From the NCBI RefSeq assembly GCF_013122565.1, contig NZ_CP053258.1: a stretch of 64,000 nucleotides of DNA; one strand, given 5' to 3'. Source of the DNA: Escherichia coli. GTDB lineage: Bacteria; Pseudomonadota; Gammaproteobacteria; Enterobacterales; Enterobacteriaceae. Position numbers and translations under genes: made by a program. Shown here one piece after another: positions 2,516 to 59,410 of this stretch (positions within the stretch are counted from its first letter, which is position 1; each line of letters starts with the position of its first letter). The notes under the pieces are model-generated. The model had not been told where the DNA came from. It worked only from the letters and a program-made list of their open reading frames with translations, and ran no database searches.

Positions 2516-4735
2516 CTAAGCGGTAACGGTTTCCTCTTCCTCTTCGTCCATCATTTTCAAATAATGTTTTTCATCACCAGTCATACGAAAAATGGTTTTT
2601 AGTTGCTCCATATATTTCTCTGGAGATATATCTCCCATGTCTGTGATATTAACTGCATCTGAATGGGAACCTCTATTAATGTATCTATAAAATGCTCTAA
2701 AATCATTATTCTTATCATCGCTAGCAAGTTTATTTAACTCTGTCTGTAATGCATCCGTTCTATGAACAAATGCGAAGTAGTATTCCAGTATATTTCTCAT
2801 GATGTTAGGTATTATAACTTTATTTACCCTTCCATCCTTCGCATCTTTTAATACTTGCCATAGGGACTGGTATTCATTCTGAATGCTCTTTTTCTCTATT
2901 TCTGTAATTATGCTATATTCATTTTTTGTTACTCGTCCAAGATAATAATCACGCTTGAATGTTCTATCTTCTTTGCTTCTAGGAGCTAATTTGATAAGTT
3001 CATGAAAGAAATAAAGGTTATGTGTGAGTATTAATGTTTTCTTTACTGCTTTGTTATTGTTGATTATTTCATGGTGAATTATTGAAGCAATATCGTACAC
3101 ATAATTTTGAGAGAGGCTGGATATTGGATCATCAATAACGATAAATACATCTCGCATATCCGTATCATTCTTATCTGTCTTACCTTTACAGCATTCCAGA
3201 AAGTAGAGAAAGGTAATTAAAGTTTTTTCACCCTCGCTAAGAGATCTGTATACATCTTTATCTGTTGTGTTTTCAGAACGTGATATAATATATTTATCAT
3301 TGCTCTCAGTGTGTTTTTTTATGCTAAAACCATAAATTCCTAATAATTTTAGACGTTGATTTATAGAATCTATGGTTGCATCAATGTTAGATATTTGATC
3401 GCGTAGCTCTTTGATCTTTTTGCTATTGTTATCTCCTTGTTCTTTTATGGTATTTAATTCAAGTTGATATTGTTCATAAATGATTTTATAGTCATTCTCA
3501 TATTTTGAGAAAGCTTCAAACTCAGCGTTGCATAATTCTCTTATTGCTCCCCATATTTTGTAACGTATAGACTTTTCACTATCCTTAAATTGTTTGACTT
3601 TAATATTTATTTCTTTAATTCTATTGTTGTACTCTGCTATATTATCAACTACCTTTGCTTCAAGGTCGCTATTGGATTCCAAAATAATAGATATAGATGG
3701 GTTATTGATTTTATCTAACATCAATTTTAAGTTTTTGTTTGCTATTTCCTCTAGTAACGCTATATGAGATGATGTTATATCTTTTTCTTTTGAGGTGATT
3801 AATTCACAAGATGAAATCTCTTGTTTTATTTTTCTTAAATTATCTATGGTAGCGGATTCATAAGACGATCTGATAATGCGTATTTGGTCAACTTTCTTGG
3901 AGTAGCTATCATCAAAGATAGATTCAATTGCTTCTAAAAATTTGTCTTTAATAGTGTCTTCTTGGCAGAATGGGCAACATGTGCCATTTAAATATAATTC
4001 CTTCCCTTTTTTCACCCAGTCAAGGTTTTGAAGTTGTTTAATTGTTTCTGACAAATAGCTATTACTTGAGTCTATAATCGGAGTGGATAAAGATTCTTTA
4101 TCTTTTTCTGAAATGATATATTTTTCTAAAGGTGTAATTGATGCAGTGAATTTATCTTTGTTCTTTAAAAGAATACTATATTCTTGAGCAAGTGACTCGA
4201 TGTTAACGTCAGTGGTTTGAGGGGCTTTTTTAACTTGCTCATAAAATGATCTCTTGCTTCCTAACTGACCTTTCATCAAGTTCTTTAAGTCAGATGATCT
4301 AAAAGGTTCTGCTTTATTCCATATTAAATCAATATATTCATTTTCTTTATTGTTTTTATCTTTAATTAAACGCTCAATAACGTTTTTTTTATCTTTGTAT
4401 TTTGTAAGTAGGTCTTGTCTTATAGCTTCTTTTTCCAACAATTCTTTTTCAATGTCAGCATTTTCCTTACTTAAAGTGAATACTCCTTTTTGCTCTTTTG
4501 CATTATAAAAATTATCCTCAACAAACTTAGTATTATAAACCAATAGGCGAAAAGTATCTATGAAAGGACATTCGCATTCTTTGTAGTCCGTGTTATTTGG
4601 ATTATAGAAATAATTAGATATGGTTGATTTTCCACAACCGTTGTGACCATAAAGTATATTAATTTTTTTTGAGAGATTAAGAGTCGTGAAGCTATCTTTC
4701 TTATAGCTGGTTATATTCTTTAATTTAAGTTCCAT
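2516..4735 (-). CDS. Candidate antiphage/abortive-infection protein: split ABC/SMC-type ATPase with coiled-coil insert, CxxC motif and C-terminal HEPN-like domain (PrrC/RloC-like architecture, inferred)
   Basis: 739-aa ORF with ATG at 4733..4735 and GAGG-type RBS upstream. Walker A GHNGCGKST at residues 30-38; K/E-rich heptad-like region about 85-495 with CCPFC at 253-257; signature-like LSEGEK at 499-504; Walker B/D-loop VFIVIDDPISSLS at 530-542; H-loop LILTHN at 568-573; Rx6H (R684..H691) in the C-terminal ~150 aa. Much more AT-rich than the flanking phage genes. Sits at the P2 old/tin position. Confidence 0.8.
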   Translation of the reverse strand: MELKLKNITSYKKDSFTTLNLSKKINILYGHNGCGKSTISNYFYNPNNTDYKECECPFIDTFRLLVYNTKFVEDNFYNAKEQKGVFTLSKENADIEKELLEKEAIRQDLLTKYKDKKNVIERLIKDKNNKENEYIDLIWNKAEPFRSSDLKNLMKGQLGSKRSFYEQVKKAPQTTDVNIESLAQEYSILLKNKDKFTASITPLEKYIISEKDKESLSTPIIDSSNSYLSETIKQLQNLDWVKKGKELYLNGTCCPFCQEDTIKDKFLEAIESIFDDSYSKKVDQIRIIRSSYESATIDNLRKIKQEISSCELITSKEKDITSSHIALLEEIANKNLKLMLDKINNPSISIILESNSDLEAKVVDNIAEYNNRIKEINIKVKQFKDSEKSIRYKIWGAIRELCNAEFEAFSKYENDYKIIYEQYQLELNTIKEQGDNNSKKIKELRDQISNIDATIDSINQRLKLLGIYGFSIKKHTESNDKYIISRSENTTDKDVYRSLSEGEKTLITFLYFLECCKGKTDKNDTDMRDVFIVIDDPISSLSQNYVYDIASIIHHEIINNNKAVKKTLILTHNLYFFHELIKLAPRSKEDRTFKRDYYLGRVTKNEYSIITEIEKKSIQNEYQSLWQVLKDAKDGRVNKVIIPNIMRNILEYYFAFVHRTDALQTELNKLASDDKNNDFRAFYRYINRGSHSDAVNITDMGDISPEKYMEQLKTIFRMTGDEKHYLKMMDEEEEETVTA

Positions 4736-5065
4736 TTTAAAACCTCATCATTGCCAATGATATTGTATAAATATTTAAGCTGTTTAACATGAATTATTTT
4801 GCTAAACGATAAAGATCTACCTCAGAAGTTTACTTTGTTCAAGCAAAATCTTTTGTTCTAAGAGATATAAAAATTTTTATTAATAGTTTGATTTTTGTTC
4901 ATGGGATTTCCTTTTTTTATGTTTTTACAAAGTAATAACTATGCATGTATCAGGTGCATGGTTTTGCATGTGTCAAAGTTATGCGTCCTCATTGCTTTAC
5001 GTCACAGCTAGCGAGGATTCAACGTACTCATGCAACTGCATTAAAACCGCCCCATGAAGCGGGCG

Positions 5066-8090: not shown

Positions 8091-8233
8091 GGCTACTGAG
8101 TCGCGCCCCGCGATTCGCTAAGGTGCTGTTGTGTCAGTGATAAGCCATCCGGGACTGATGGCGGAGGATGCGCATCGTCGGGAAACTGATGCCGACATGT
8201 GACTCCTCTAATCACTATTCAGGACTCCTGACA

Positions 8234-9088
8234 ATGGCAAAAAAAGTCTCAAAATTCTTTCGTATCGGCGTTGAGGGTGACACCTGTGACGGGCGTGTCA
8301 TCAGTGCGCAGGATATTCAGGAAATGGCCGAAACCTTTGACCCGCGTGTCTATGGTTGCCGCATTAACCTGGAACATCTGCGCGGCATCCTGCCTGACGG
8401 TATTTTTAAGCGTTATGGCGATGTGGTCGAACTGAAGGCGGAAAAGATTGACGACGATTCGGCGCTGAAAGGCAAATGGGCGCTGTTTGCGAAAATCACC
8501 CCGACCGATGACCTTATCGCGATGAACAAGGCCGCGCAGAAAGTCTACACCTCAATGGAAATTCAGCCGAACTTTGCCAATACCGGCAAATGTTATCTGG
8601 TGGGGCTGGCCGTCACCGATGACCCGGCAAGCCTCGGCACGGAATACCTGGAATTCTGCCGCACGGCAAAACACAACCCCCTGAACCGCTTCAAATTAAG
8701 CCCTGAAAACCTGATTTCAGTGGCAACGCCTGTTGAGCTGGAATTTGAAGACCTGCCTGAAACCGTGTTCACCGCCCTGACCGAAAAGGTGAAATCCATT
8801 TTTGGCCGCAAACAGGCCAGCGATGACGCCCGTCTGAATGACGTGCATGAAGCGGTGACCGCTGTTGCTGAACATGTGCAGGAAAAACTGAGCGCCACTG
8901 AGCAGCGCCTCGCTGAGATGGAAACCGCCTTTTCCGCACTTAAGCAGGATGTGACTGACAGGGCGGATGAAACCAGCCAGGCATTCACCCGCCTGAAAAA
9001 CAGTCTCGACCACACCGAAAGTCTGACCCAGCAGCGCCGCAGCAAGGCCACCGGCGGTGGCGGTGACGCCCTGATGACGAACTGCTGA
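8234..9088 (+). CDS. O: Capsid scaffolding protein
   Basis: Start chosen at the internal ATG (MAKKVSKFFRIGVEG...), giving 284 aa as in P2 gpO; the track ORF extends upstream to 8168. Confidence 0.85.
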   Translation: MAKKVSKFFRIGVEGDTCDGRVISAQDIQEMAETFDPRVYGCRINLEHLRGILPDGIFKRYGDVVELKAEKIDDDSALKGKWALFAKITPTDDLIAMNKAAQKVYTSMEIQPNFANTGKCYLVGLAVTDDPASLGTEYLEFCRTAKHNPLNRFKLSPENLISVATPVELEFEDLPETVFTALTEKVKSIFGRKQASDDARLNDVHEAVTAVAEHVQEKLSATEQRLAEMETAFSALKQDVTDRADETSQAFTRLKNSLDHTESLTQQRRSKATGGGGDALMTNC

Positions 9089-11066: not shown

Positions 11067-11576
11067 ATGATGACGCTGATTATTCCGCGAAAGGAGGCTC
11101 CCGTGTCCGGTGAGGGTACGGTGGTCATCCCGCAACCGGCAGGCGACGAGCCGGTGATTAAAAACACGTTCTTTTTTCCCGATATCGACCCGAAGCGCGT
11201 CCGGGAACGTATGCGCCTTGAGCAGACCGTCGCCCCCGCCCGTCTGCGTGAGGCCATCAAGTCAGGCATGGCGGAGACGAATGCGGAGCTGTACGAGTAC
11301 CGCGAACAGAAAATTGCCGCCGGTTTTACGCGTCTGGCGGACGTTCCGGCGGACGACATCGACGGTGAAAGCATCAGAGTTTTTTACTACGAGCGCGCCG
11401 TGTGTGCGATGGCGACCGCGTCGCTTTATGAGCGTTATCGCGGCGTGGATGCCAGTGCGAAAGGCGACAAGAAGGCTGACAGCATTGACAGCACCATCGA
11501 TGAACTGTGGCGGGATATGCGCTGGGCAGTGGCGCGCATCCAGGACAAGCCGCGCTGCATCGTGAGTCAAATCTGA
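11067..11576 (+). CDS. L: Head completion/stabilisation protein
   Basis: Internal start MMTLIIPRKE gives 169 aa as in P2 gpL; the track ORF extends to 11007. Confidence 0.8.
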   Translation: MMTLIIPRKEAPVSGEGTVVIPQPAGDEPVIKNTFFFPDIDPKRVRERMRLEQTVAPARLREAIKSGMAETNAELYEYREQKIAAGFTRLADVPADDIDGESIRVFYYERAVCAMATASLYERYRGVDASAKGDKKADSIDSTIDELWRDMRWAVARIQDKPRCIVSQI

Positions 11577-11779
11577 TGAAGACCTTTGCGCTACAGGGCG
11601 ACACGCTCGACGCCATTTGTGTCCGGTATTACGGGCGCACTGAGGGCGTGGTCGAGGCTGTGCTCGCCGCAAATCCGGGACTGGCTGAACTGGGGGCGGT
11701 GCTGCCACATGGCACCGCCGTCGAACTGCCCGACGTTCAGACCGCGCCCGTGGCTGAAACTGTCAATCTGTGGGAGTAA
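11576..11779 (+). CDS. X: Tail protein X
   Basis: Start MKTFALQGDTLD gives 67 aa as in P2 gpX; its start overlaps the L stop. Confidence 0.8.
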   Translation: MKTFALQGDTLDAICVRYYGRTEGVVEAVLAANPGLAELGAVLPHGTAVELPDVQTAPVAETVNLWE

Positions 11780-11782
11780 CGC

Positions 11783-12064
11783 ATGACAGCAGAAGAAAAA
11801 AGCGTCCTGTCGCTTTTCATGATTGGGGTGCTGATTGTTGTCGGCAAGGTGCTTGCCGGTGGTGAACCCATCACCCCGCGTCTGTTTATCGGGCGCATGT
11901 TGCTCGGTGGTTTTGTCTCGATGGTTGCCGGTGTTGTTCTGGTGCAGTTTCCTGACCTGTCACTGCCTGCGGTGTGCGGCATCGGCTCCATGCTGGGTAT
12001 CGCCGGTTATCAGGTGATTGAGATTGCCATTCAGCGCCGCTTTAAGGGCAGGGGGAAACCGTAA
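11783..12064 (+). CDS. Y: Holin
   Basis: 93 aa with hydrophobic helices, directly upstream of the endolysin gene as in P2. Confidence 0.85.
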   Translation: MTAEEKSVLSLFMIGVLIVVGKVLAGGEPITPRLFIGRMLLGGFVSMVAGVVLVQFPDLSLPAVCGIGSMLGIAGYQVIEIAIQRRFKGRGKP

Positions 12065-12561
12065 TGCCGGTAATTAACACGCATCAGAATATCGCGGCCT
12101 TTCTCGACATGCTGGCAGTGTCCGAAGGGACGGCGAATCATCCGCTGACGAAAAACCGGGGCTATGACGTGATAGTCACCGGACTGGACGGGAAGCCGGA
12201 AGTTTTCACCGACTACAGTGACCACCCGTTCGCGCATGGCCGACCGGCGAAGGTGTTTAACCGTCGCGGTGAAAAATCCACGGCCTCCGGTCGCTATCAG
12301 CAGCTTTACCTGTTCTGGCCGCACTACCGCAAACAGCTTGCCCTGCCGGATTTCAGTCCGCTGTCACAGGACAGGCTCGCCATTCAGTTGATCCGCGAAC
12401 GCGGTGCACTGGATGACATCCGGGCGGGACGCATTGAGCGCGCCATTTCACGCTGTCGCAATATCTGGGCGTCCCTGCCGGGTGCCGGTTACGGTCAGCG
12501 TGAGCATTCACTGGAAAAACTGGTCACCGTCTGGCGTACCGCTGGCGGCGTACCGGCTTAA
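12064..12561 (+). CDS. K: Endolysin (lysozyme)
   Basis: 165 aa, same length as P2 gpK; follows the holin. Confidence 0.85.
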   Translation: MPVINTHQNIAAFLDMLAVSEGTANHPLTKNRGYDVIVTGLDGKPEVFTDYSDHPFAHGRPAKVFNRRGEKSTASGRYQQLYLFWPHYRKQLALPDFSPLSQDRLAIQLIRERGALDDIRAGRIERAISRCRNIWASLPGAGYGQREHSLEKLVTVWRTAGGVPA

Positions 12562-12575
12562 ACGGAGTAAACACC

Positions 12576-13001
12576 ATGAAGAAATTATCCCTTTCACTGA
12601 TGCTGAACGTGTCGCTGGCGCTGATGCTGGCACTGTCCCTGATTTACCCGCAGAGCGTGGCCGTCAATTTTGTCGCCGCCTGGGCGATTCTGGCGACGGT
12701 TATCTGTGTGGTTGCCGGTGGTGTCGGCGTGTATGCCACTGAGTATGTGCTGGAACGCTACGGGCGGGAGCTGCCGCCGGAATCGCTGGCCGTGAAGATT
12801 GTCACGTCGCTGTTTTTGCAGCCGGTGCCGTGGCGCAGGCGGGCAGCGGCTCTGGTGGTGATGGTGGCGACATTTAGCTCGCTGGTCGCTGCCGGGTGGA
12901 TTTTTACTGCGCTGATTTACCTCGTGGCGTCGGTGTTCTTCCGGCTGATACGTACGGCCTGCCGTCAGCGTTTTGAGGGGCGGGAACCATGTCAAAGCTG
13001 A
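12576..13001 (+). CDS. lysA: Lysis timing/accessory membrane protein
   Basis: 141 aa, very hydrophobic with multiple TM helices; matches P2 LysA length and position. Confidence 0.8.
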   Translation: MKKLSLSLMLNVSLALMLALSLIYPQSVAVNFVAAWAILATVICVVAGGVGVYATEYVLERYGRELPPESLAVKIVTSLFLQPVPWRRRAAALVVMVATFSSLVAAGWIFTALIYLVASVFFRLIRTACRQRFEGREPCQS

Positions 13002-13414
13002 TGATTGTGCTGGTTGTATTGTTATCACTGGCGGTGGCGGGGCTGTTTCTGGTGAAGCATGAAAATGCCAGCCTGCGCACCTCACTGGACAGGGCGAACA
13101 GCGTCGCCAGCGGGCAGCAGACGACCATCACCATGCTGAAAAATCAGCTTCATGTTGCCCTCACCAGGGCAGACAAAAACGAGCTGGCGCAGGTGGCACT
13201 GCGTCAGGAACTGGAGAACGCCGCGAAGCGTGAAGCACTGCGCGAGAAAACCATCACGAGGTTACTTAATGAAAACGAGGATTTTCGCCGCTGGTATGGC
13301 GCTGACCTGCCTGATGCTGTGCGCCGGTTGCACCAGCGTCCGGCCTGCACTGACGCCAGTGATTGTCGCCAACGCCTGCCCGAAAGTGAGCCTTTGCCCG
13401 ATGCCGGGCAGTGA
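12989..13414 (+). CDS. lysB: Spanin inner-membrane subunit (Rz-like)
   Basis: 141 aa with N-terminal TM segment and coiled-coil-like body; matches P2 LysB. Confidence 0.8.
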   Translation: MSKLMIVLVVLLSLAVAGLFLVKHENASLRTSLDRANSVASGQQTTITMLKNQLHVALTRADKNELAQVALRQELENAAKREALREKTITRLLNENEDFRRWYGADLPDAVRRLHQRPACTDASDCRQRLPESEPLPDAGQ

Positions 13415-13559
13415 CCCGCAGAAGAACGGCGATTTAAGTGCCGATATCCGGCAGCTTGAGAACGCGCTGGCACGCTGTGCCAGCCAGGTAAAAATGATTA
13501 AACACTGTCAGGACGAAAACGATGCTCAAACCCGACAGCCTGCGCAGGGCGCTGACTGA
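13269..13559 (+). CDS. lysC: Spanin outer-membrane lipoprotein (Rz1-like), starts inside lysB in the +1 frame
   Basis: Internal start MKTRIFAAGMALTCLMLCAGC with lipobox LCAGC; 96 aa as for P2 LysC; begins within lysB and ends 145 nt after it. Confidence 0.7.
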   Translation: MKTRIFAAGMALTCLMLCAGCTSVRPALTPVIVANACPKVSLCPMPGSDPQKNGDLSADIRQLENALARCASQVKMIKHCQDENDAQTRQPAQGAD

Positions 13560-13989
13560 TGCCGTCACGGTGCTGAAAACCAGTCCCGAGATGCTGCGGA
13601 TATTCGTGGATAACGGGAGTATTGCCTCCACACTGGCGACGTCGTTGTCATTCGAAAAGCGTTACACGCTCAATGTGATTGTGACCGACTTTACCGGTGA
13701 TTTTGACCTGCTCATTGTGCCGGTGCTGGCGTGGCTGCGGGAAAATCAGCCCGACATCATGACCACTGACGAAGGTCAGAAAAAGGGCTTCACGTTTTAT
13801 GCAGACATCAACAATGACAGCAGCTTTGATATCAGCATCAGCCTGATGCTGACCGAGCGCACGCTGGTCAGTGAGGTTGACGGTGCGCTGCATGTGAAGA
13901 ATATCCCGGAACCTCCGCCGCCGGAGCCGGTTACCCGCCCGATGGAGCTGTATATCAATGGCGAACTGGTGAGCAAGTGGGATGAATGA
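13522..13989 (+). CDS. R: Tail completion protein
   Basis: 155 aa, same length and position as P2 gpR. Confidence 0.85.
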   Translation: MLKPDSLRRALTDAVTVLKTSPEMLRIFVDNGSIASTLATSLSFEKRYTLNVIVTDFTGDFDLLIVPVLAWLRENQPDIMTTDEGQKKGFTFYADINNDSSFDISISLMLTERTLVSEVDGALHVKNIPEPPPPEPVTRPMELYINGELVSKWDE

Positions 13990-14434
13990 GTTTAAGCGTT
14001 TTGAAGACCGGCTGACCGGACTGATTGAGTCGCTGTCACCGTCAGGGCGTCGACGACTGAGTGCCGAACTGGCGAAACGTCTGCGTCAGAGTCAGCAGCG
14101 TCGGGTGATGGCACAGAAAGCCCCGGACGGCACACCCTACGCGCCACGCCAGCAGCAGAGCGCCAGAAAAAAGACCGGTCGTGTTAAGCGAAAAATGTTT
14201 GCGAAACTTATCACCAGTCGCTTTTTGCATATCCGCGCCAGCCCGGAACAGGCATCAATGGAATTTTACGGCGGGAAGTCGCCGAAAATCGCCAGTGTGC
14301 ATCAGTTCGGTCTGTCGGAAGAAAACCGGAAAGACGGTAAGAAAATTGATTATCCGGCGCGTCCTCTGCTCGGCTTTACCGGTGAGGATGTGCAGATGAT
14401 TGAAGAGATTATTCTGGCTCACCTCGACCGTTAG
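13982..14434 (+). CDS. S: Tail completion protein
   Basis: 150 aa, same length and position as P2 gpS. Confidence 0.85.
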   Translation: MNEFKRFEDRLTGLIESLSPSGRRRLSAELAKRLRQSQQRRVMAQKAPDGTPYAPRQQQSARKKTGRVKRKMFAKLITSRFLHIRASPEQASMEFYGGKSPKIASVHQFGLSEENRKDGKKIDYPARPLLGFTGEDVQMIEEIILAHLDR

Positions 14435-14500
14435 TTGTGCCATTCCTGACACCTCATCGTCACATTGCCGCCGGTATGACCCGGCGGCATCCTTCCCGTT

Positions 14501-15136
14501 ATGAACACTCTCGCAAATATCCAGGAACTCGCGCGCGCACTGCGCAATATGATTCGCACCGGCCTTGTCGTCGAAACCGACCTTAACGCCGGTCGCTGCC
14601 GAGTGCAGACCGGCGGCATGTGCACTGACTGGCTTCAGTGGCTGACTCATCGCGCCGGGCGTTCGCGCACATGGTGGGCACCTTCCGTGGGGGAACAGGT
14701 GCTGATTCTGGCCGTGGGCGGTGAACTTGACACGGCGTTTGTTCTGCCGGGGATTTATTCCGGCGATAACCCCGCGCCGTCTGCGTCGGCGGATGCCCTG
14801 CATATCCGTTTCCCTGACGGGGCGGTGATTGAGTATGAACCCGAAACCAGTGCACTCACGGTAAGCGGAATTAAAACGGTCAGCGTGACGGCTTCTGATT
14901 CTGTTACTGCCACGGTGCCGGTGGTCATGGTGAAAGCGTCAACCCGCATCACCCTGGACACACCGGAGGTGGTCTGCACCAACAGGCTGATTACCGGCAC
15001 GCTGGAAGTGCAGAAGGGCGGGACGATGCGCGGCAACATTGAACACACCGGCGGTGAACTCTCATCAAACGGTAAGGTACTGCATACCCACAAACACCCC
15101 GGCGACAGCGGCGGCACAACCGGGAGTCCTTTATGA
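14501..15136 (+). CDS. V: Baseplate spike/central hub protein
   Basis: 211 aa, same length as P2 gpV; first gene of the V W J I H G operon. Confidence 0.85.
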   Translation: MNTLANIQELARALRNMIRTGLVVETDLNAGRCRVQTGGMCTDWLQWLTHRAGRSRTWWAPSVGEQVLILAVGGELDTAFVLPGIYSGDNPAPSASADALHIRFPDGAVIEYEPETSALTVSGIKTVSVTASDSVTATVPVVMVKASTRITLDTPEVVCTNRLITGTLEVQKGGTMRGNIEHTGGELSSNGKVLHTHKHPGDSGGTTGSPL

Positions 15137-18331: not shown

Positions 18332-18933
18332 TGGATTACGCCGTATTAAATAACGAGTTTATCGCCACCCAGGCAGGAAATATTACTGTTTATAACTATG
18401 ATGGTGAAACGCGTGAATATATTTCTACATCAACTGAATATCTCGCTGTCGGCGTCGGTATTCCGGCATGTTCTTGTTTGGATGCACCAGGTACACATAA
18501 AGCTGGTTATGCAATCTGTCGCTCTGTAGATTTAAATTCATGGGAATATGTGCCAGACCATCGCGGTGAAATCGTCTATAGCACCGAAACAGGAGAATCG
18601 AAAGAAATCACAGCTCCGGGTGATTATCCTGAAAATACAACCACTATCGCCCCGTTAACGCCATACGATGAATGGAATGGTGAGAAATGGGTGACAGATA
18701 CTGAGGCACAGCATAGTGCCGCAGTAGACGCGGCAGAAGCACAGCGCCAGTCGCTGATTGATGCTGCAATGGCTTCCATCAGTCTGATTCAACTGAAATT
18801 ACGGGCCGGGCGGAAGCTGACGCAGCCAGAAAACACCCGACTTAACGCCGTGCTGGATTACATTGACGCGGTGACGGCAACAGATACCAGCACCGCACCG
18901 GATGTCATCTGGCCTGAACTGCCGGAGGCGTAG
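18331..18933 (+). CDS. G: Tail fibre assembly chaperone (expressed orientation)
   Basis: 200 aa, gpG position; C-terminal motif TSTAPDVIWPELPE typical of tail fibre assembly proteins. Confidence 0.8.
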   Translation: MDYAVLNNEFIATQAGNITVYNYDGETREYISTSTEYLAVGVGIPACSCLDAPGTHKAGYAICRSVDLNSWEYVPDHRGEIVYSTETGESKEITAPGDYPENTTTIAPLTPYDEWNGEKWVTDTEAQHSAAVDAAEAQRQSLIDAAMASISLIQLKLRAGRKLTQPENTRLNAVLDYIDAVTATDTSTAPDVIWPELPEA

Positions 18934-19345
18934 GCCATTCAATATCTGGAGCACTGGAGGAATCAACCAGTTCCAGTGCGTCCAGATAATCTAGCCATAA
19001 ATTATATTGCGCCAGTTCCTCACCTTTCAGACGACCAATCGCCGCTTTACCAGGCCATTGCTTACTGTTTATGTATTCGTTGACCTGATTAATCAATTGC
19101 TGCTTTTCCAATTCGGCTGCGGCAATTTGTTCCTCATGAGTTGGCGGTGGAATATCAATCCATGCAGGCATTCCGTCGATGACACCTCTGTATTTTCCTT
19201 CTGGTGCTTCCTTCATAAATTCGGCGGCAACAGTGTCGTCAATTTCGATTCCATCATCGGGCCATTCGCCGGATTCCTGATAAGCGATTTTAAGCTCCAC
19301 AGGGAAAAACGCATTTTTATCGGCACTGAAAATATATTTCTGCAT
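18905..19345 (-). CDS. Alternative tail fibre assembly chaperone (G'), silent in this orientation
   Basis: 146 aa, convergent with G and overlapping its 3' end; C-terminal motif SSAPDIEWPTPP; lies inside the invertible segment. Confidence 0.75.
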   Translation of the reverse strand: MQKYIFSADKNAFFPVELKIAYQESGEWPDDGIEIDDTVAAEFMKEAPEGKYRGVIDGMPAWIDIPPPTHEEQIAAAELEKQQLINQVNEYINSKQWPGKAAIGRLKGEELAQYNLWLDYLDALELVDSSSAPDIEWPTPPAVQAR

Positions 19346-19347
19346 TT

Positions 19348-19746
19348 CTACCGTCCTATCGAAATATAACTGAATCTGTATTGCTGTGAGATATCACTGG
19401 TTGCCACACGCCACGCTGAATTACTGATATGTTCAAAATTTACAGACAAAACCTGCGGGGCAGGAATCGACGGGTCTGACTGAACGGCATCAGACATAAC
19501 ACTGACTGAAACCATCGGCTGATTAGGGAATGGTATAGGGAAGTGTCCACTGATAAAGCGGGTCGTGTTTCCTGAAAAAGTGCCAAACTGAACAATATAT
19601 CCACCTGGTAGCCTGAACCATCCCGAACCAGAAGCGAATGCTCCCATATCCGGTATCTGATTATCTCCTGTGCCCACATCCCTTTTCGCCGCTTCTCCCA
19701 AACCAACGTTTATGAAAATGCAGAGATAACGGGCAACTGGCATCAT
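19348..19746 (-). CDS. Alternative tail fibre C-terminal cassette (H'), expressed only after inversion by fusion to the constant part of H
   Basis: The minus-strand frame encodes GLGEAAKRDVGTGDNQ..., which is in frame with the GLGE of H across the shared 14-bp crossover sequence; the functional part is about 19348..19706. Confidence 0.7.
   Translation of the reverse strand: MMPVARYLCIFINVGLGEAAKRDVGTGDNQIPDMGAFASGSGWFRLPGGYIVQFGTFSGNTTRFISGHFPIPFPNQPMVSVSVMSDAVQSDPSIPAPQVLSVNFEHISNSAWRVATSDISQQYRFSYISIGR
19693..19718. other. gix/hix-like invertase crossover site (right), about 50 bp upstream of the invertase gene
   Basis: TTCTCCCAAACC AA CGTTTATGAAAA; its reverse complement shares TTGGTTTGGGAGAA with the left site. 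The sites bound an invertible segment of about 1.9 kb (17820..19706). Confidence 0.6.
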
Positions 19747-19767
19747 CTCCGGTTTTTATTCAGGGGG

Positions 19768-20367
19768 ATGCTCATGCTTATTGGCTATGTACGCGTGTCA
19801 ACAAATGACCAGAACACGGAATTGCAGCGTAACGCGCTGGAGTGCGCAGGATGCGAGCGGATTTTTGAGGATAAAATCAGCGGCACGAAGTCCGACCGAC
19901 CGGGACTGAAAAAACTGCTCAGAACATTATCAGCAGGTGACACTCTGGTAGTCTGGAAGCTGGACCGGCTGGGGCGTAGTATGCGGCATCTGGTCATTCT
20001 GGTTGAGGAGCTGCGCGAACGCGGCGTTAATTTTCGCAGCCTGACAGATGCTATTGATACCAGCACGCCGATGGGGCGTTTTTTCTTTCATGTGATGGGT
20101 GCCCTGGCTGAAATGGAGCGAGAACTCATTGTCGAGCGGACACGCGCCGGACTGGAAGCGGCCAGAGCCAAAGGGCGTATTGGTGGCAGACGTCCGAAGC
20201 TCACCGCGAGTGAGTGGGAACAGGCAGGACGGTTGCTGGCTGCGGGTGAATCACGTCAACGCGTGGCGCTGATTTTTGATATTGGCCTGTCCACGCTCTA
20301 TAAAAAATTCCCCTCATCAGCGGCAAAGAATAAATTGTGTCATCCCTTAGCCAACCGGGACAAATAG
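19768..20367 (+). CDS. Serine DNA invertase (Hin/Gin/Cin/Pin family)
   Basis: 199 aa; N-terminal catalytic motif GYVRVSTNDQ with the active-site serine; C-terminal helix-turn-helix; immediately next to the invertible tail-fibre segment. Confidence 0.85.
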   Translation: MLMLIGYVRVSTNDQNTELQRNALECAGCERIFEDKISGTKSDRPGLKKLLRTLSAGDTLVVWKLDRLGRSMRHLVILVEELRERGVNFRSLTDAIDTSTPMGRFFFHVMGALAEMERELIVERTRAGLEAARAKGRIGGRRPKLTASEWEQAGRLLAAGESRQRVALIFDIGLSTLYKKFPSSAAKNKLCHPLANRDK

Positions 20368-26729: not shown

Positions 26730-26811
26730 TGTGTTTTATTTTATCTGTTTGTTTTATAAGGATAAATTAACTAAAATGGCAACATCAACAAAACCGGAAG
26801 AGGTGCTCGCG

Positions 26812-27030
26812 ATGTTTCATTGTCCTTTATGCCAGCATGCCGCACATGCGCGTACAAGTCGCTATATCACTGACACGACAAAAGAGCGTTATCACCAGTG
26901 TCAGAACGTGAATTGCAGCGCCACGTTCATCACTTATGAGTCTGTACAGCGATACATTGTGAAGCCGGGAGAAGTCCACGCCGTGAGGCCGCACCCGTTG
27001 CCGTCAGGGCAGCAAATTATGTGGATGTAA
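26812..27030 (+). CDS. ogr: Ogr zinc-finger late-gene transcriptional activator
   Basis: Internal start MFHCPLCQHAAHAR gives 72 aa as for P2 Ogr; CxxC...CxxxxC zinc-finger cysteines; last phage gene before att. Confidence 0.85.
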   Translation: MFHCPLCQHAAHARTSRYITDTTKERYHQCQNVNCSATFITYESVQRYIVKPGEVHAVRPHPLPSGQQIMWM

Positions 27031-27043
27031 TTACAAACAGAAA

Positions 27044-27068
27044 GCCCCTCAGTCGAGGGGCTTTTTTT
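27044..27068 (+). terminator. Rho-independent terminator after ogr
   Basis: GCCCCTC-AGTC-GAGGGGC hairpin followed by a run of seven T, 14 nt past the ogr stop. Confidence 0.7.
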
Positions 27069-27132
27069 GTCGATGTGGTCAATGTGTGGACGTGACCAGA
27101 AATAAATCCTTTTATTTCAATTTGTTGTACGT

Positions 27133-27159
27133 AAAAAATAAGCCCGTGTAAGGGAGATT
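27133..27159. other. Prophage attR core (P2 att core)
   Basis: AAAAAATAAGCCCGTGTAAGGGAGATT, the 27-nt P2 attP/attB core from memory; it coincides with the 3' end of cyaR and marks the prophage/host junction. Confidence 0.55.
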
Positions 27160-27219
27160 ACACAGGCTAAGGAGGTGGTTCCTGGTACAGCTAGCATTTT
27201 ATGGGTTATGTTTTTCAGC
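27133..27219 (-). ncRNA. cyaR: CyaR (RyeE) Hfq-dependent sRNA
   Basis: Minus-strand sequence GCUGAAAAACAUAACCCAUAAAAUGCUAGCUGUACCAGGAACCACCUCCUUAGCCUGUGUAAUCUCCCUUACACGGGCUUAUUUUUU (87 nt) matches CyaR from memory, including the terminator hairpin; position between yegQ and ogr as in K-12. Confidence 0.75.
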
Positions 27220-27253
27220 GAAACGGATGATAACCTTAATAAATGCAGCTGTA

Positions 27254-27269
27254 TGTGATCGGTTTCTAA
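27254..27269. promoter_or_regulatory. Candidate CRP site of the cyaR promoter (class II position)
   Basis: TGTGA-N6-TCTAA centred about 42 bp upstream of the inferred CyaR 5' end; CyaR is known to be CRP-cAMP activated; the second half-site is weak. Confidence 0.35.
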
Positions 27270-27303
27270 GAATTTTCCATCCGGGAAAAATAATCGAAAT
27301 TAA

Positions 27304-28665
27304 TCACTTACCGTGGGGGTTACGCGTGGTTTCCCCGGAGAAATTACGCATCAGCAGCGCGTAATTCAGTTCAAGATCCTGCGGTACCGGGATCCAAACA
27401 GTATAACCATCGCCAGGTGCGACCGGCATAGCTTCACCTTTGGCGTTTTCCATGTGCTCAAGGGTAAAGTTAATGTTGCCTTGCGGCGTCATCAGCTCGA
27501 GGCTGTCGCCAACGGAGAATTTATTTTTCACCGCTACCGCCGCGAGGTCCCCCTTGCGCTCACCGGTAAACTCACCAACAAACTGCTGGCGGTCAGAAAC
27601 CGAATAACCGTATTCGTAGTTCTGATAATCGTCGTGAGTATGACGACGCAGGAAACCTTCGGTATAGCCACGATGCGCCAGACCTTCCAGAGTTTCCAGC
27701 AGGCTGGTATCGAACGGTTTGCCCGCAGCGGCATCATCGATAGCTTTGCGATAAACCTGCGCGGTGCGTGCGCAATAGTAGAAAGATTTGGTACGGCCTT
27801 CGATTTTCAGCGAATGCACGCCCATTTTGGTCAGGCGTTCAACATGGGCGATGGCGCGCAGATCTTTCGAGTTCATGATGTAAGTGCCGTGCTCATCTTC
27901 AAACGCGGTCATATACTCGCCCGGACGCTGGGCTTCTTCGATCATAAACACTTTGTCGGTTGGCGCGCCGATACCCAGCGTCGGCTCAACATTTTGCACC
28001 GGAATCGGCTCGTACTTGTGTACGATGTTGCCAACGTCATCTTCTTTCCCTTCCTGGACGTTGTACTCCCAGCGGCAGGCGTTGGTGCAGGTACCCTGGT
28101 TCGGGTCGCGCTTGTTGATATAGCCAGAGAGCAGGCAGCGACCGGAGTAGGCCATGCACAGTGCGCCGTGAACGAAGATCTCGATCTCCATATCCGGCAC
28201 CTGATTGCGGATCTCTTCAATCTCTTCCAGCGACAGCTCGCGAGAGAGGATCACGCGGGTCAGGCCCATTTGCTGCCAGAATTTCACCGTCGCCCAGTTT
28301 ACGGCGTTAGCCTGCACCGAGAGGTGGATCGGCATTTCAGGGAAGTGCTCACGCACCAGCATAATCAACCCCGGATCGGACATAATCAGCGCATCCGGCC
28401 CCATCTCCACCACCGGTTTCAGGTCACGGATAAAGGTTTTCAGCTTGGCGTTGTGCGGGGCAATGTTGACCACGACATAAAACTTTTTCCCCAGCGCGTG
28501 GGCTTCATTGATGCCGAGCTGAAGATTTTCGTGGTTGAATTCGTTGTTGCGCACACGCAGGGAGTAACGCGGCTGGCCCGCATAAACAGCATCTGCGCCA
28601 TAAGCGAAAGCGTAACGCATATTTTTCAGCGTTCCCGCCGGGGAAAGGAGTTCCGGTTTAAACAT
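27304..28665 (-). CDS. yegQ: U32-family peptidase-like protein YegQ
   Basis: 453 aa, same length as K-12 YegQ; conserved position next to cyaR. Confidence 0.9.
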   Translation of the reverse strand: MFKPELLSPAGTLKNMRYAFAYGADAVYAGQPRYSLRVRNNEFNHENLQLGINEAHALGKKFYVVVNIAPHNAKLKTFIRDLKPVVEMGPDALIMSDPGLIMLVREHFPEMPIHLSVQANAVNWATVKFWQQMGLTRVILSRELSLEEIEEIRNQVPDMEIEIFVHGALCMAYSGRCLLSGYINKRDPNQGTCTNACRWEYNVQEGKEDDVGNIVHKYEPIPVQNVEPTLGIGAPTDKVFMIEEAQRPGEYMTAFEDEHGTYIMNSKDLRAIAHVERLTKMGVHSLKIEGRTKSFYYCARTAQVYRKAIDDAAAGKPFDTSLLETLEGLAHRGYTEGFLRRHTHDDYQNYEYGYSVSDRQQFVGEFTGERKGDLAAVAVKNKFSVGDSLELMTPQGNINFTLEHMENAKGEAMPVAPGDGYTVWIPVPQDLELNYALLMRNFSGETTRNPHGK

Positions 28666-28767
28666 AATTCTCTCGTTCTGATGACAGGTCAGATCCGCTT
28701 CACCTGATGAAGCGGCCAGGGGAGTGCCCCCACTTTAAGGGCGGGCATTGTAGCGCAATCGGCGGGT

Positions 28768-29064
28768 TTAGCTCCAGTGTAAATGTCTGGTGGCGTCCTG
28801 GTTTTGGTTAAGGATACGAATGACGATAATTTCCCCTGGTGATTGCAGGAAATAAATTACGTGGCGTTCAAAAGGAAGAACAAAAATACCTTCGCCTAAT
28901 TCAGGTCTGGGCGTACCTATATTATTGTTACTCAGAATCTGGAGAACGTCTGAAAGATGTTCCACATATCTGTCGGCTTGTGGTTCGCCGAAATGGTGAT
29001 AACTGTAATACCAGATGCCTTCTAAATCCTCATTGGCTTTTGGCATGAGTTTAATAATACGCAC
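28768..29064 (-). CDS. ParE/RelE-family type II toxin
   Basis: 98 aa; pattern ...GEGIFVLPFERHVIYFLQSPGEIIVIRILNQNQD typical of ParE toxins; starts one base after the antitoxin stop. Confidence 0.7.
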   Translation of the reverse strand: MRIIKLMPKANEDLEGIWYYSYHHFGEPQADRYVEHLSDVLQILSNNNIGTPRPELGEGIFVLPFERHVIYFLQSPGEIIVIRILNQNQDATRHLHWS

Positions 29065-29065
29065 A

Positions 29066-29317
29066 TTATTTCCTTATCCCTGCTTTCACCTTCCGTAAAA
29101 ACGCGTCCTTTTCCCACGGCTGAGCTTCACCACTACTCAACCCTTCTGCAAGCATGTCACGTAATGCTTGCAGGCGAGACTCTGCTTGCTTTTCTCGAAG
29201 TAAGCGCAGTGACTCACGGATCACTTCGCTTTGGGTGCGATAGTCGCCGGATTCAATTAAGGACTCGATAAATTCACGCAACTCATCGCCGAGATCAACC
29301 GTCATCGTTCTGGCCAT
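29066..29317 (-). CDS. ParD-like ribbon-helix-helix antitoxin
   Basis: Start chosen at MARTMTVDLGDELREFIESL (83 aa); small acidic RHH-like protein immediately upstream of the toxin; the track ORF extends to 29413. Confidence 0.65.
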   Translation of the reverse strand: MARTMTVDLGDELREFIESLIESGDYRTQSEVIRESLRLLREKQAESRLQALRDMLAEGLSSGEAQPWEKDAFLRKVKAGIRK

Positions 29318-29562
29318 TTTACGTCCGCCTGTAAGTAAAAATCTTACATCAGTGTATTTCATAAAACGCATAGCGTCACGAAAGTATTGGAAGATATTTT
29401 GGCATATGAACATGTTCAGGAGGGGATGGTAAACAAAGAAAGCACAACGAGTGCTCGTCAGTGCCCACTATTTTAATGGCGGAGGTTAATCTTAATTATC
29501 AATAACTAAGCGTTATTTTGATATAAAGCCGGACGCCAACAAACCCACGCCCGGCATCGTAA

Positions 29563-58270: not shown

Positions 58271-59410
58271 ATGATGAAATCCAAAATGAAATTGATGCCA
58301 TTATTGGTGTCAGTAACCTTGATAAGCGGTTGCACAGTACTTCCGGGCAGCAATATGTCGACGATGGGGAAAGACGTCATCAAACAGCAGGACGCTGATT
58401 TCGATCTCGACAAAATGGTGAATGTTTATCCGCTGACCCCGCGCCTGATTGACCAATTACGCCCACGACCCAACGTAGCGCGCCCCAATATGACGCTGGA
58501 AAGCGAGATCGCGAATTACCAGTATCGCGTCGGGCCGGGGGACGTTCTTAATGTCACCGTCTGGGATCACCCGGAACTCACCACGCCAGCCGGTCAGTAC
58601 CGCAGCTCCAGCGACACCGGCAACTGGGTACAGCCTGACGGCACTATGTTTTACCCGTATATCGGCAAGGTCCACGTAGTCGGGAAAACGCTCGCTGAAA
58701 TCCGCAGTGATATTACCGGGCGCTTAGCGACGTACATCGCTGACCCGCAGGTGGACGTTAATATCGCCGCCTTCCGCTCACAAAAGGCCTATATCTCAGG
58801 TCAGGTGAATAAATCTGGTCAACAGGCGATCACCAACGTACCACTGACCATTCTCGACGCCATCAACGCCGCAGGTGGCCTGACCGACACCGCTGACTGG
58901 CGCAACGTGGTGCTAACACACAATGGTCGTGAAGAGCGCATTTCTTTGCAGGCGCTGATGCAAAACGGCGACCTCAACCAGAATCGCCTGCTTTACCCCG
59001 GCGATATTCTCTACGTGCCACGTAATGATGATCTGAAAGTATTTGTGATGGGTGAAGTGAAGAAACAGAGCACCCTGAAAATGGACTTTAGCGGCATGAC
59101 CCTGACTGAAGCTCTGGGCAATGCCGAAGGTATCGACATGACCACCTCCAACGCCAGCGGTATCTTTGTCATTCGTCCGTTGAAAGGCGAGGGCGGGCGT
59201 AACGGCAAGATTGCCAATATCTACCAGCTGGATATGTCCGATGCCACGTCGCTGGTGATGGCGACAGAATTCCGCCTGCAACCTTATGACGTGGTATATG
59301 TCACCACCGCCCCGGTTTCCCGCTGGAACCGTCTGATCAATCAGTTGCTGCCAACTATTAGCGGTGTCCGTTACATGACGGATACAGCCAGCGACATTCA
59401 TAACTGGTAA
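58271..59410 (+). CDS. wza: Outer membrane polysaccharide export lipoprotein Wza
   Basis: 379 aa; lipoprotein signal (LISGC); first gene of the colanic acid cluster. Confidence 0.95.

Follow-up and report, generated by a model that had tools for sequence, protein, structure and literature searches.

The window analysed here, a 64,000-nucleotide stretch of Escherichia coli DNA, is a 100% match to the chromosome of E. coli isolate NZ_OZ197100.1. It contains a block of phage lysis and tail genes whose DNA identity to P2-group phages is 95.6–99%, and a related block is found in 1701 of 5426 complete E. coli genomes, about a third. The genes follow the order of the late-operon lysis and tail block of P2, namely holin Y, endolysin K, lysA, lysB/lysC, R and S; their positions as far as R, together with features of lysC itself, are collected in Table 1. 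In P2, lysA is annotated "affects timing of lysis", and its product has been called an antiholin (PMC3091744). We found no sigma-70-like promoter in 11500..14700, which fits transcription of lysC as part of the late operon.

Table 1. Genes of the lysis cassette and sequence features of lysC, with their positions in the window
Feature	Position	Strand	Basis or remarks
Holin gene (P2 Y homologue), first of the lysis cassette	11783..12064	+	PF04550, E = 2.6e-42; PHROG 175 holin
Endolysin gene (P2 K homologue)	12064..12561	+	PHROG 90; RefSeq name: glycoside hydrolase family 104
lysA homologue, membrane protein; lysis timing / putative antiholin	12576..13001	+	NF038378, 124.6 bits
lysB, i-spanin gene	12989..13414	+	141 aa; TIGR03495 phage_LysB, 172 bits (cutoff 92.75); PHROG 89
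Shine-Dalgarno motif GAGG	13258..13261	+	7 nt upstream of the lysC ATG; sequence acGAGGttacttaATG
lysC, o-spanin gene (almost certain)	13269..13559	+	ORF, HMMs, P2/Wphi geometry and dN/dS; predicted 96-aa prolipoprotein, 76 aa when mature
Predicted signal peptide, coding part (aa 1-20)	13269..13328	+	n-region MKTR, h-region IFAAGMALTCLMLCAG
Codon of Cys21, predicted lipidation and signal peptidase II site	13329..13331	+	box C-A-G-C, +2 Thr
Dual-coding stretch, 146 nt	13269..13414	+	LysB C-terminus (frame 0); LysC signal peptide and Pro-rich linker (+1)
lysC-only stretch	13415..13521	+	without lysC would resemble a lysB-R intergenic gap
Overlap of lysC 3' end and R start, 38 nt	13522..13559	+	R ATG at 13522
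R, tail completion gene	13522..	+	PF06891 P2_Phage_GpR, E = 6e-45

An open reading frame that overlaps lysB and R

The frame that we call lysC opens with an ATG at 13269..13271, closes with a stop codon whose last nucleotide is 13559, and is 291 nt long; translated from ATG 13269, its 96-aa product begins MKTRIFAAGMALTCLMLCAGCTSV... It starts 280 nt into lysB, in the +1 frame relative to that gene. The original prediction had described exactly such a 96-aa out-of-frame ORF at 13269-13559, beginning inside lysB and continuing 145 nt beyond its stop into the 5' end of R, and every one of these coordinates holds on reading the sequence and the ORF listing, with 38 nt lying in R. The helical, Cys-rich half of LysC is encoded almost entirely past the lysB stop, its last 12 codons being common to R. 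The word "nested", which the prediction had also used, has to be given up: lysC runs on after the lysB stop, and the gene does not lie wholly within the i-spanin gene, as an embedded o-spanin gene does. The literature keeps "embedded" for lambda Rz1 and calls the lysB/lysC arrangement of P2 "overlapped" (PMC6139136; PMC3556154).

Profile searches place the product in one family. LysC matches the NCBIfam equivalog NF038368 P2_Rz1, "Rz1-like lysis system protein LysC", at 124.5 bits (cutoff 27) over positions 2-85 of 85, and Pfam PF23793 LysC at 53.4 bits (cutoff 27) over positions 1-69 of 69; it also matches PHROG 456, "Rz-like spanin". A PDB profile search with LysC returned nothing meaningful, the best hit being a designed coiled coil at E = 0.012. 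The setting is the one expected of an o-spanin gene, with an overlapping i-spanin gene and with holin, endolysin and lysA genes directly upstream; LysB has an N-terminal transmembrane helix at residues ~4-22 (LMIVLVVLLSLAVAGLFLV), which is its best 19-aa hydropathy window (mean 3.1). Collectively, these data make it nearly certain that the gene is lysC, the o-spanin gene of a two-component spanin in a P2-like E. coli prophage. Both this identity and the architecture were already known: P2 lysB/lysC is the paradigm of "overlapped" spanins, and the exact 96-aa protein is present in NCBI as "Rz1-like lysis system protein LysC". The value of the locus as a discovery is thus small, as it is a textbook "overlapped" spanin whose exact protein is public under the right name.

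The predicted lipoprotein signal

The N-terminus of LysC reads MKTRIFAAGMALTCLMLCAGC followed by TSV, with 2 basic residues among the first four, an h-region of 16 residues (5-20) with a mean Kyte-Doolittle hydropathy of 2.1, and then Gly-Cys. The lipoprotein signal with the box LCAGC that had been proposed from the letters therefore stands as a string, its Cys at residue 21, and is weaker as a motif: the box is non-canonical at -3 and passes relaxed rules only. With a Cys at that position, it fails the strict consensus [LVI][ASTVI][GAS]C and likewise a transcribed version of the PROSITE lipoprotein pattern. Among the 15 loci that we compared, the residue preceding Cys21 is G or A in every relative. 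In the more distant relatives the box at this point of the alignment is canonical, of the form L-[SAPC]-[GA]-C (LSGC, LAGC, LCAC, LPAC), and the Cys at -3 is therefore peculiar to the P2-like and SEN1-like relatives. For the P2 family, SpaninDB lists a 20-aa signal, the box LCAG and a mature protein beginning CTS. Because Cys21 is invariant, the distant boxes are canonical and SpaninDB accepts LCAG followed by C, we do not take the failure of the strict rules as a refutation. LysC is thus a predicted lipoprotein, on the strength of a rule-based check and of the published SpaninDB curation.

The pattern is rare in the window. Applied to the 1695 candidate starts with at least 60 codons downstream, a simple lipoprotein-signal rule picked out a signal plus lipobox at 3 distinct places, 13269 included, against a mean of 0.2 in triplet-shuffled windows. 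The sole other convincing lipoprotein-signal ORF in the window, at 58271 (+), encodes 379 aa and is presumably a chromosomal lipoprotein.

Sorting by the Lol pathway follows an established rule, which turns on Asp at +2. In LysC, residue +2 is Thr and residue +3 is Ser; because +2 is Thr rather than Asp, the protein would be sorted to the outer membrane.

Comparison with known spanins

The closest well-described counterpart is LysC of P2 itself (NP_757382.1; NC_001895, lysC at 8202..8492), which is likewise 96 aa long and about 91% identical to the LysC of the window. According to a passage in PMC3091744 that cites Markov et al. (2004), P2 lysC opens inside lysB, in the +1 frame, and has its stop in R. 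The offsets of lysC to lysB and R in P2 and Wphi are identical to those in the window (start at 280 nt; 146, 145 and 38 nt), and P2 LysC shares the ...CLMLCAGC signal, the Shine-Dalgarno motif and the four periplasmic cysteines. The two proteins differ at 9 of 96 residues, all within the N-terminal 52. Given from window to P2, the signal peptide accounts for four of the changes (K2R, R4K, M10T, A11V) and the Pro-rich linker region for the other five (V24A, R25P, L28P, A35P, K52T), and the mature protein has 7 prolines in the window and 10 in P2.

Lambda Rz1 is a small outer-membrane lipoprotein, as LysC is predicted to be; its gene, too, is read in the +1 frame relative to the i-spanin gene and closes the lysis cassette, and the two proteins would do the same job (PMC6139136; PMC3091744). 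The architecture differs, in that Rz1 lies wholly inside Rz whereas the lysC of the window continues past lysB into the next gene. In sequence, we detected no similarity to lambda Rz1; a Pfam scan at E <= 0.01 returned PF23793 LysC only. Lambda Rz1 has one periplasmic cysteine (Cys29; PMC6139136), compared to four in the LysC of the window, and the lambda-like Rz1 of phage KS5 is 26% proline (PMC3091744), compared to about 9%. The unimolecular spanin T1 gp11 has an N-terminal outer-membrane lipoprotein signal, as predicted for LysC, and acts in the last step of lysis, as LysC would, but it also has a C-terminal transmembrane helix and works alone, whereas LysC would depend on a separate i-spanin. 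The C-terminus of LysC (...DENDAQTRQPAQGAD) is of another kind than that of a unimolecular spanin, its last 30 residues being polar and charged.

Proposed function in lysis

The model into which LysC fits is the published spanin model, which is based mostly on lambda Rz/Rz1 (PMC6139136; PMC3556154). Under this model, translation would begin at ATG 13269, behind the GAGG ribosome-binding site that lies inside lysB, and the 96-aa precursor would be exported, lipidated at Cys21 and cut by signal peptidase II between Gly20 and Cys21. The Lol pathway would then place LysC in the outer membrane, on its inner leaflet. The part of LysC that lies in the periplasm, made up of a Pro-rich linker and then a helical C-terminal half with four cysteines, would bind the periplasmic domain of LysB, which would itself be held in the inner membrane by its N-terminal helix, and the resulting LysB-LysC complexes would span the periplasm through the peptidoglycan mesh. 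Once holin and endolysin had destroyed the peptidoglycan, the complexes could fuse the two membranes as the last step of lysis. We infer processing, sorting, complex formation and membrane fusion from family membership, and they are to be read as predictions for this protein. A 2004 study by Markov et al. is said to have found that P2 lysB plus lysC complemented a lambda Rz/Rz1 defect. Spanins are believed to need disulfide bonds as a rule; the periplasmic cysteines number four in LysC and two in LysB, and SpaninDB gives the same counts for the P2 family.

The older annotation of these genes points elsewhere. The P2 and Wphi records speak of "regulation of lysis" and of a "lysis control protein", and the P2 GenBank record describes lysB and lysC as non-essential genes that affect the timing of lysis, from which one could argue that LysC mainly regulates when lysis occurs, possibly through holin/antiholin, and does not disrupt the outer membrane. 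Loss of a spanin under ordinary laboratory conditions looks like a timing effect, as is generally known for lambda Rz/Rz1. We regard a mainly regulatory LysC as unlikely, as the protein resembles an o-spanin in all its sequence features and has an i-spanin for a partner, and as P2 LysB/LysC is now classed as a two-component spanin (PMC6139136; PMC3556154).

Start codon and annotation of lysC

Two questions bear on where the o-spanin gene begins: how far upstream the frame reaches, and which of its methionines is used. The longest ORF in the lysC frame opens at ATG 13152 and would give 135 aa; we rejected it, as Wphi and EtG have a stop immediately before the ATG aligned with 13269. On the other side, the RefSeq/PGAP annotation of the same DNA (NZ_OZ197100.1, WP_225390765.1) begins lysC at 13296, which is Met10 and yields 87 aa. 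With 295 contigs, this is the commonest deposited form; public databases also contain LysC versions of 96, 81 and 57 aa, those of 81 aa corresponding to a start at Met16. It is nevertheless very improbable that lysC is real and starts at Met10 or Met16. Met10 is unconserved, being Thr in P2, Ile or Leu in other relatives and Met in the window and Wphi only; a protein that began there would lose the basic n-region (K2, R4) and keep just 11 residues before the lipidation Cys; and no Shine-Dalgarno motif precedes 13296, in contrast to the GAGG before 13269. A purine-rich GAGG, GGAG or AAGG lies at a similar distance upstream of the lysC start in nearly all relatives, and for fiAA91-ss, a phage of the P2 family, SpaninDB marks this same GAGG. 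At alignment position 1, all 15 loci have ATG or GTG, and the 96-aa form is the one used by the P2 record, the Wphi record and SpaninDB. We therefore prefer Met1, because it is the sole start conserved in the 15 loci and has the Shine-Dalgarno motif and the basic n-region, and because P2 has Thr at position 10. The Met10 start in RefSeq is very probably nine codons too late.

Gene callers had been expected to miss lysC easily, and the public records bear this out. Among 14 phage records, lysC is annotated at full length in 5 (P2, Wphi, ST79, phiCTX and Menos), as a stub in 7 and not at all in 2. The stubs are 38-57 aa long, start near the lysB stop and are without a signal peptide. In all nine records with a stub or a missing gene (SEN1, EtG, ST147-VIM1phi7.1, 613R3, 500465-1, MLG42, ST512-KPC3phi13.2, YenM_06.16-2 and SopEPhi), the full +1-frame lysC ORF is there, its signal and lipobox intact. 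That such genes escape gene callers is also said by Kongari et al. (2018; PMC6139136). The practical value of the present analysis lies in annotation, since phage and prophage records still frequently cut lysC short or leave it out (9 of the 14 phage records inspected). In a shortened call the lipoprotein signal is lost from view, and nothing else allows an o-spanin to be recognised in families that lack sequence similarity.

Conservation and selection

Our comparison comprised the window and 14 P2-like phage loci, 15 in all, with phage hosts in Escherichia, Salmonella, Erwinia, Klebsiella, Yersinia, Burkholderia and Pseudomonas. At every one of them the start codon of lysC is ATG or GTG and lies within lysB, in the +1 frame, and the gene reaches its stop within R. 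Cys21, Cys37, Cys43 and Cys70 are invariant (15/15), Cys80 is present in 14 of the 15, and the LysC of the window has all five. The frame, the start and the cysteines are kept down to 31-33% identity. An interruption of the frame in relatives, which the original prediction had named as a finding that would speak against it, was not seen; the frame is uninterrupted in every relative examined. By tblastn, the lysC frame was found in 282 phage records, in 235 of them as a single piece spanning 80% or more of its length.

We then consider selection in the stretch that belongs to lysC alone. Using 105 nt of whole lysC codons within 13415..13521, and comparing the window with SEN1, EtG and 613R3, we obtained a dN/dS of 0.06-0.10 for the lysC frame, as against 1.5-2.1 for the two remaining forward frames. 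These ratios point to strong purifying selection on the lysC frame. ORF length alone is not evidence for lysC, because alternative-frame ORFs of 80-180 aa are common in the region, with several others in the same 3.5 kb; yet the notion that the frame is open by chance, on the strand that codes for lysB and R and as a by-product of GC-rich coding DNA, and makes no protein, has next to no probability left and is already refuted by selection and conservation, given a dN/dS that exceeds 1.5 in the remaining frames of a stretch free of other genes, HMM scores at 2-4.6 times the curated cutoffs, and a frame, start and cysteines that persist across the 15 loci.

Between the window and P2, 7 of the 9 nucleotide differences in the dual-coding 146 nt are silent in lysB (7 synonymous, 2 non-synonymous), and the same differences count as 1 synonymous and 8 non-synonymous in lysC; between the window and Wphi, the counts are 5 synonymous and 1 non-synonymous in lysB, and 0 and 6 in lysC. 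Changes in the overlap among close relatives are thus mostly silent in lysB and amino-acid-changing in lysC, and the conserved LysB C-terminus (...DLPDAVRRLHQRPAC...) therefore dominates the constraint there. Variation in the overlap is, on this substitution pattern, absorbed by the LysC signal peptide and Pro-rich linker.

Within the linker, residues 24-35 of LysC (13338..13373) have Arg25, Leu28 and Ala35 at positions where P2 has prolines, and Arg25 is common to Wphi. A speculative reading, to which we assign only a slim chance, is that the window prophage and Wphi, with their Arg25, represent a natural lysis-timing variant of the spanin and, separately, that the LysC linker, given the tighter constraint on the overlap in the lysB frame, has room to change and acts as a tuning knob.

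Finally, P2 has an annotated "putative transcription attenuator" inside lysC, which corresponds to 13466..13484 in the window. A hairpin with an 8-bp stem, GCTGGCAC-GCT-GTGCCAGC, is present, with no T-run after it and a folding z-score of -0.87. A consensus terminator scan does not pick it up, and SEN1-like or Fels-2-like relatives do not conserve the pairing. We rejected this candidate, having found no support at these positions for a conserved RNA element.

Other features of the prophage

Three further places in the prophage and at its border deserve mention. Between the portal gene and replication gene A, 2519..4738 (-) encodes a 740-aa AAA ATPase with a PrrC-like C-terminal region; it scores 840 bits against PDC-S06, a candidate defence family of PADLOC. 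This site is probably the variable cargo slot where P2 carries old/tin. At ~18905..20367, a gene for an invertase-type serine recombinase (19774..20367) adjoins oppositely oriented tail-fibre and tail-fibre-assembly genes, and the whole looks like an invertible tail-fibre segment; phage P2 is not known to have one. The prophage has its right end at ogrK, beside yegQ (~26811..29361), and just beyond that end, in the same interval, are genes for a parE toxin and for a parD antitoxin, the latter frameshifted.
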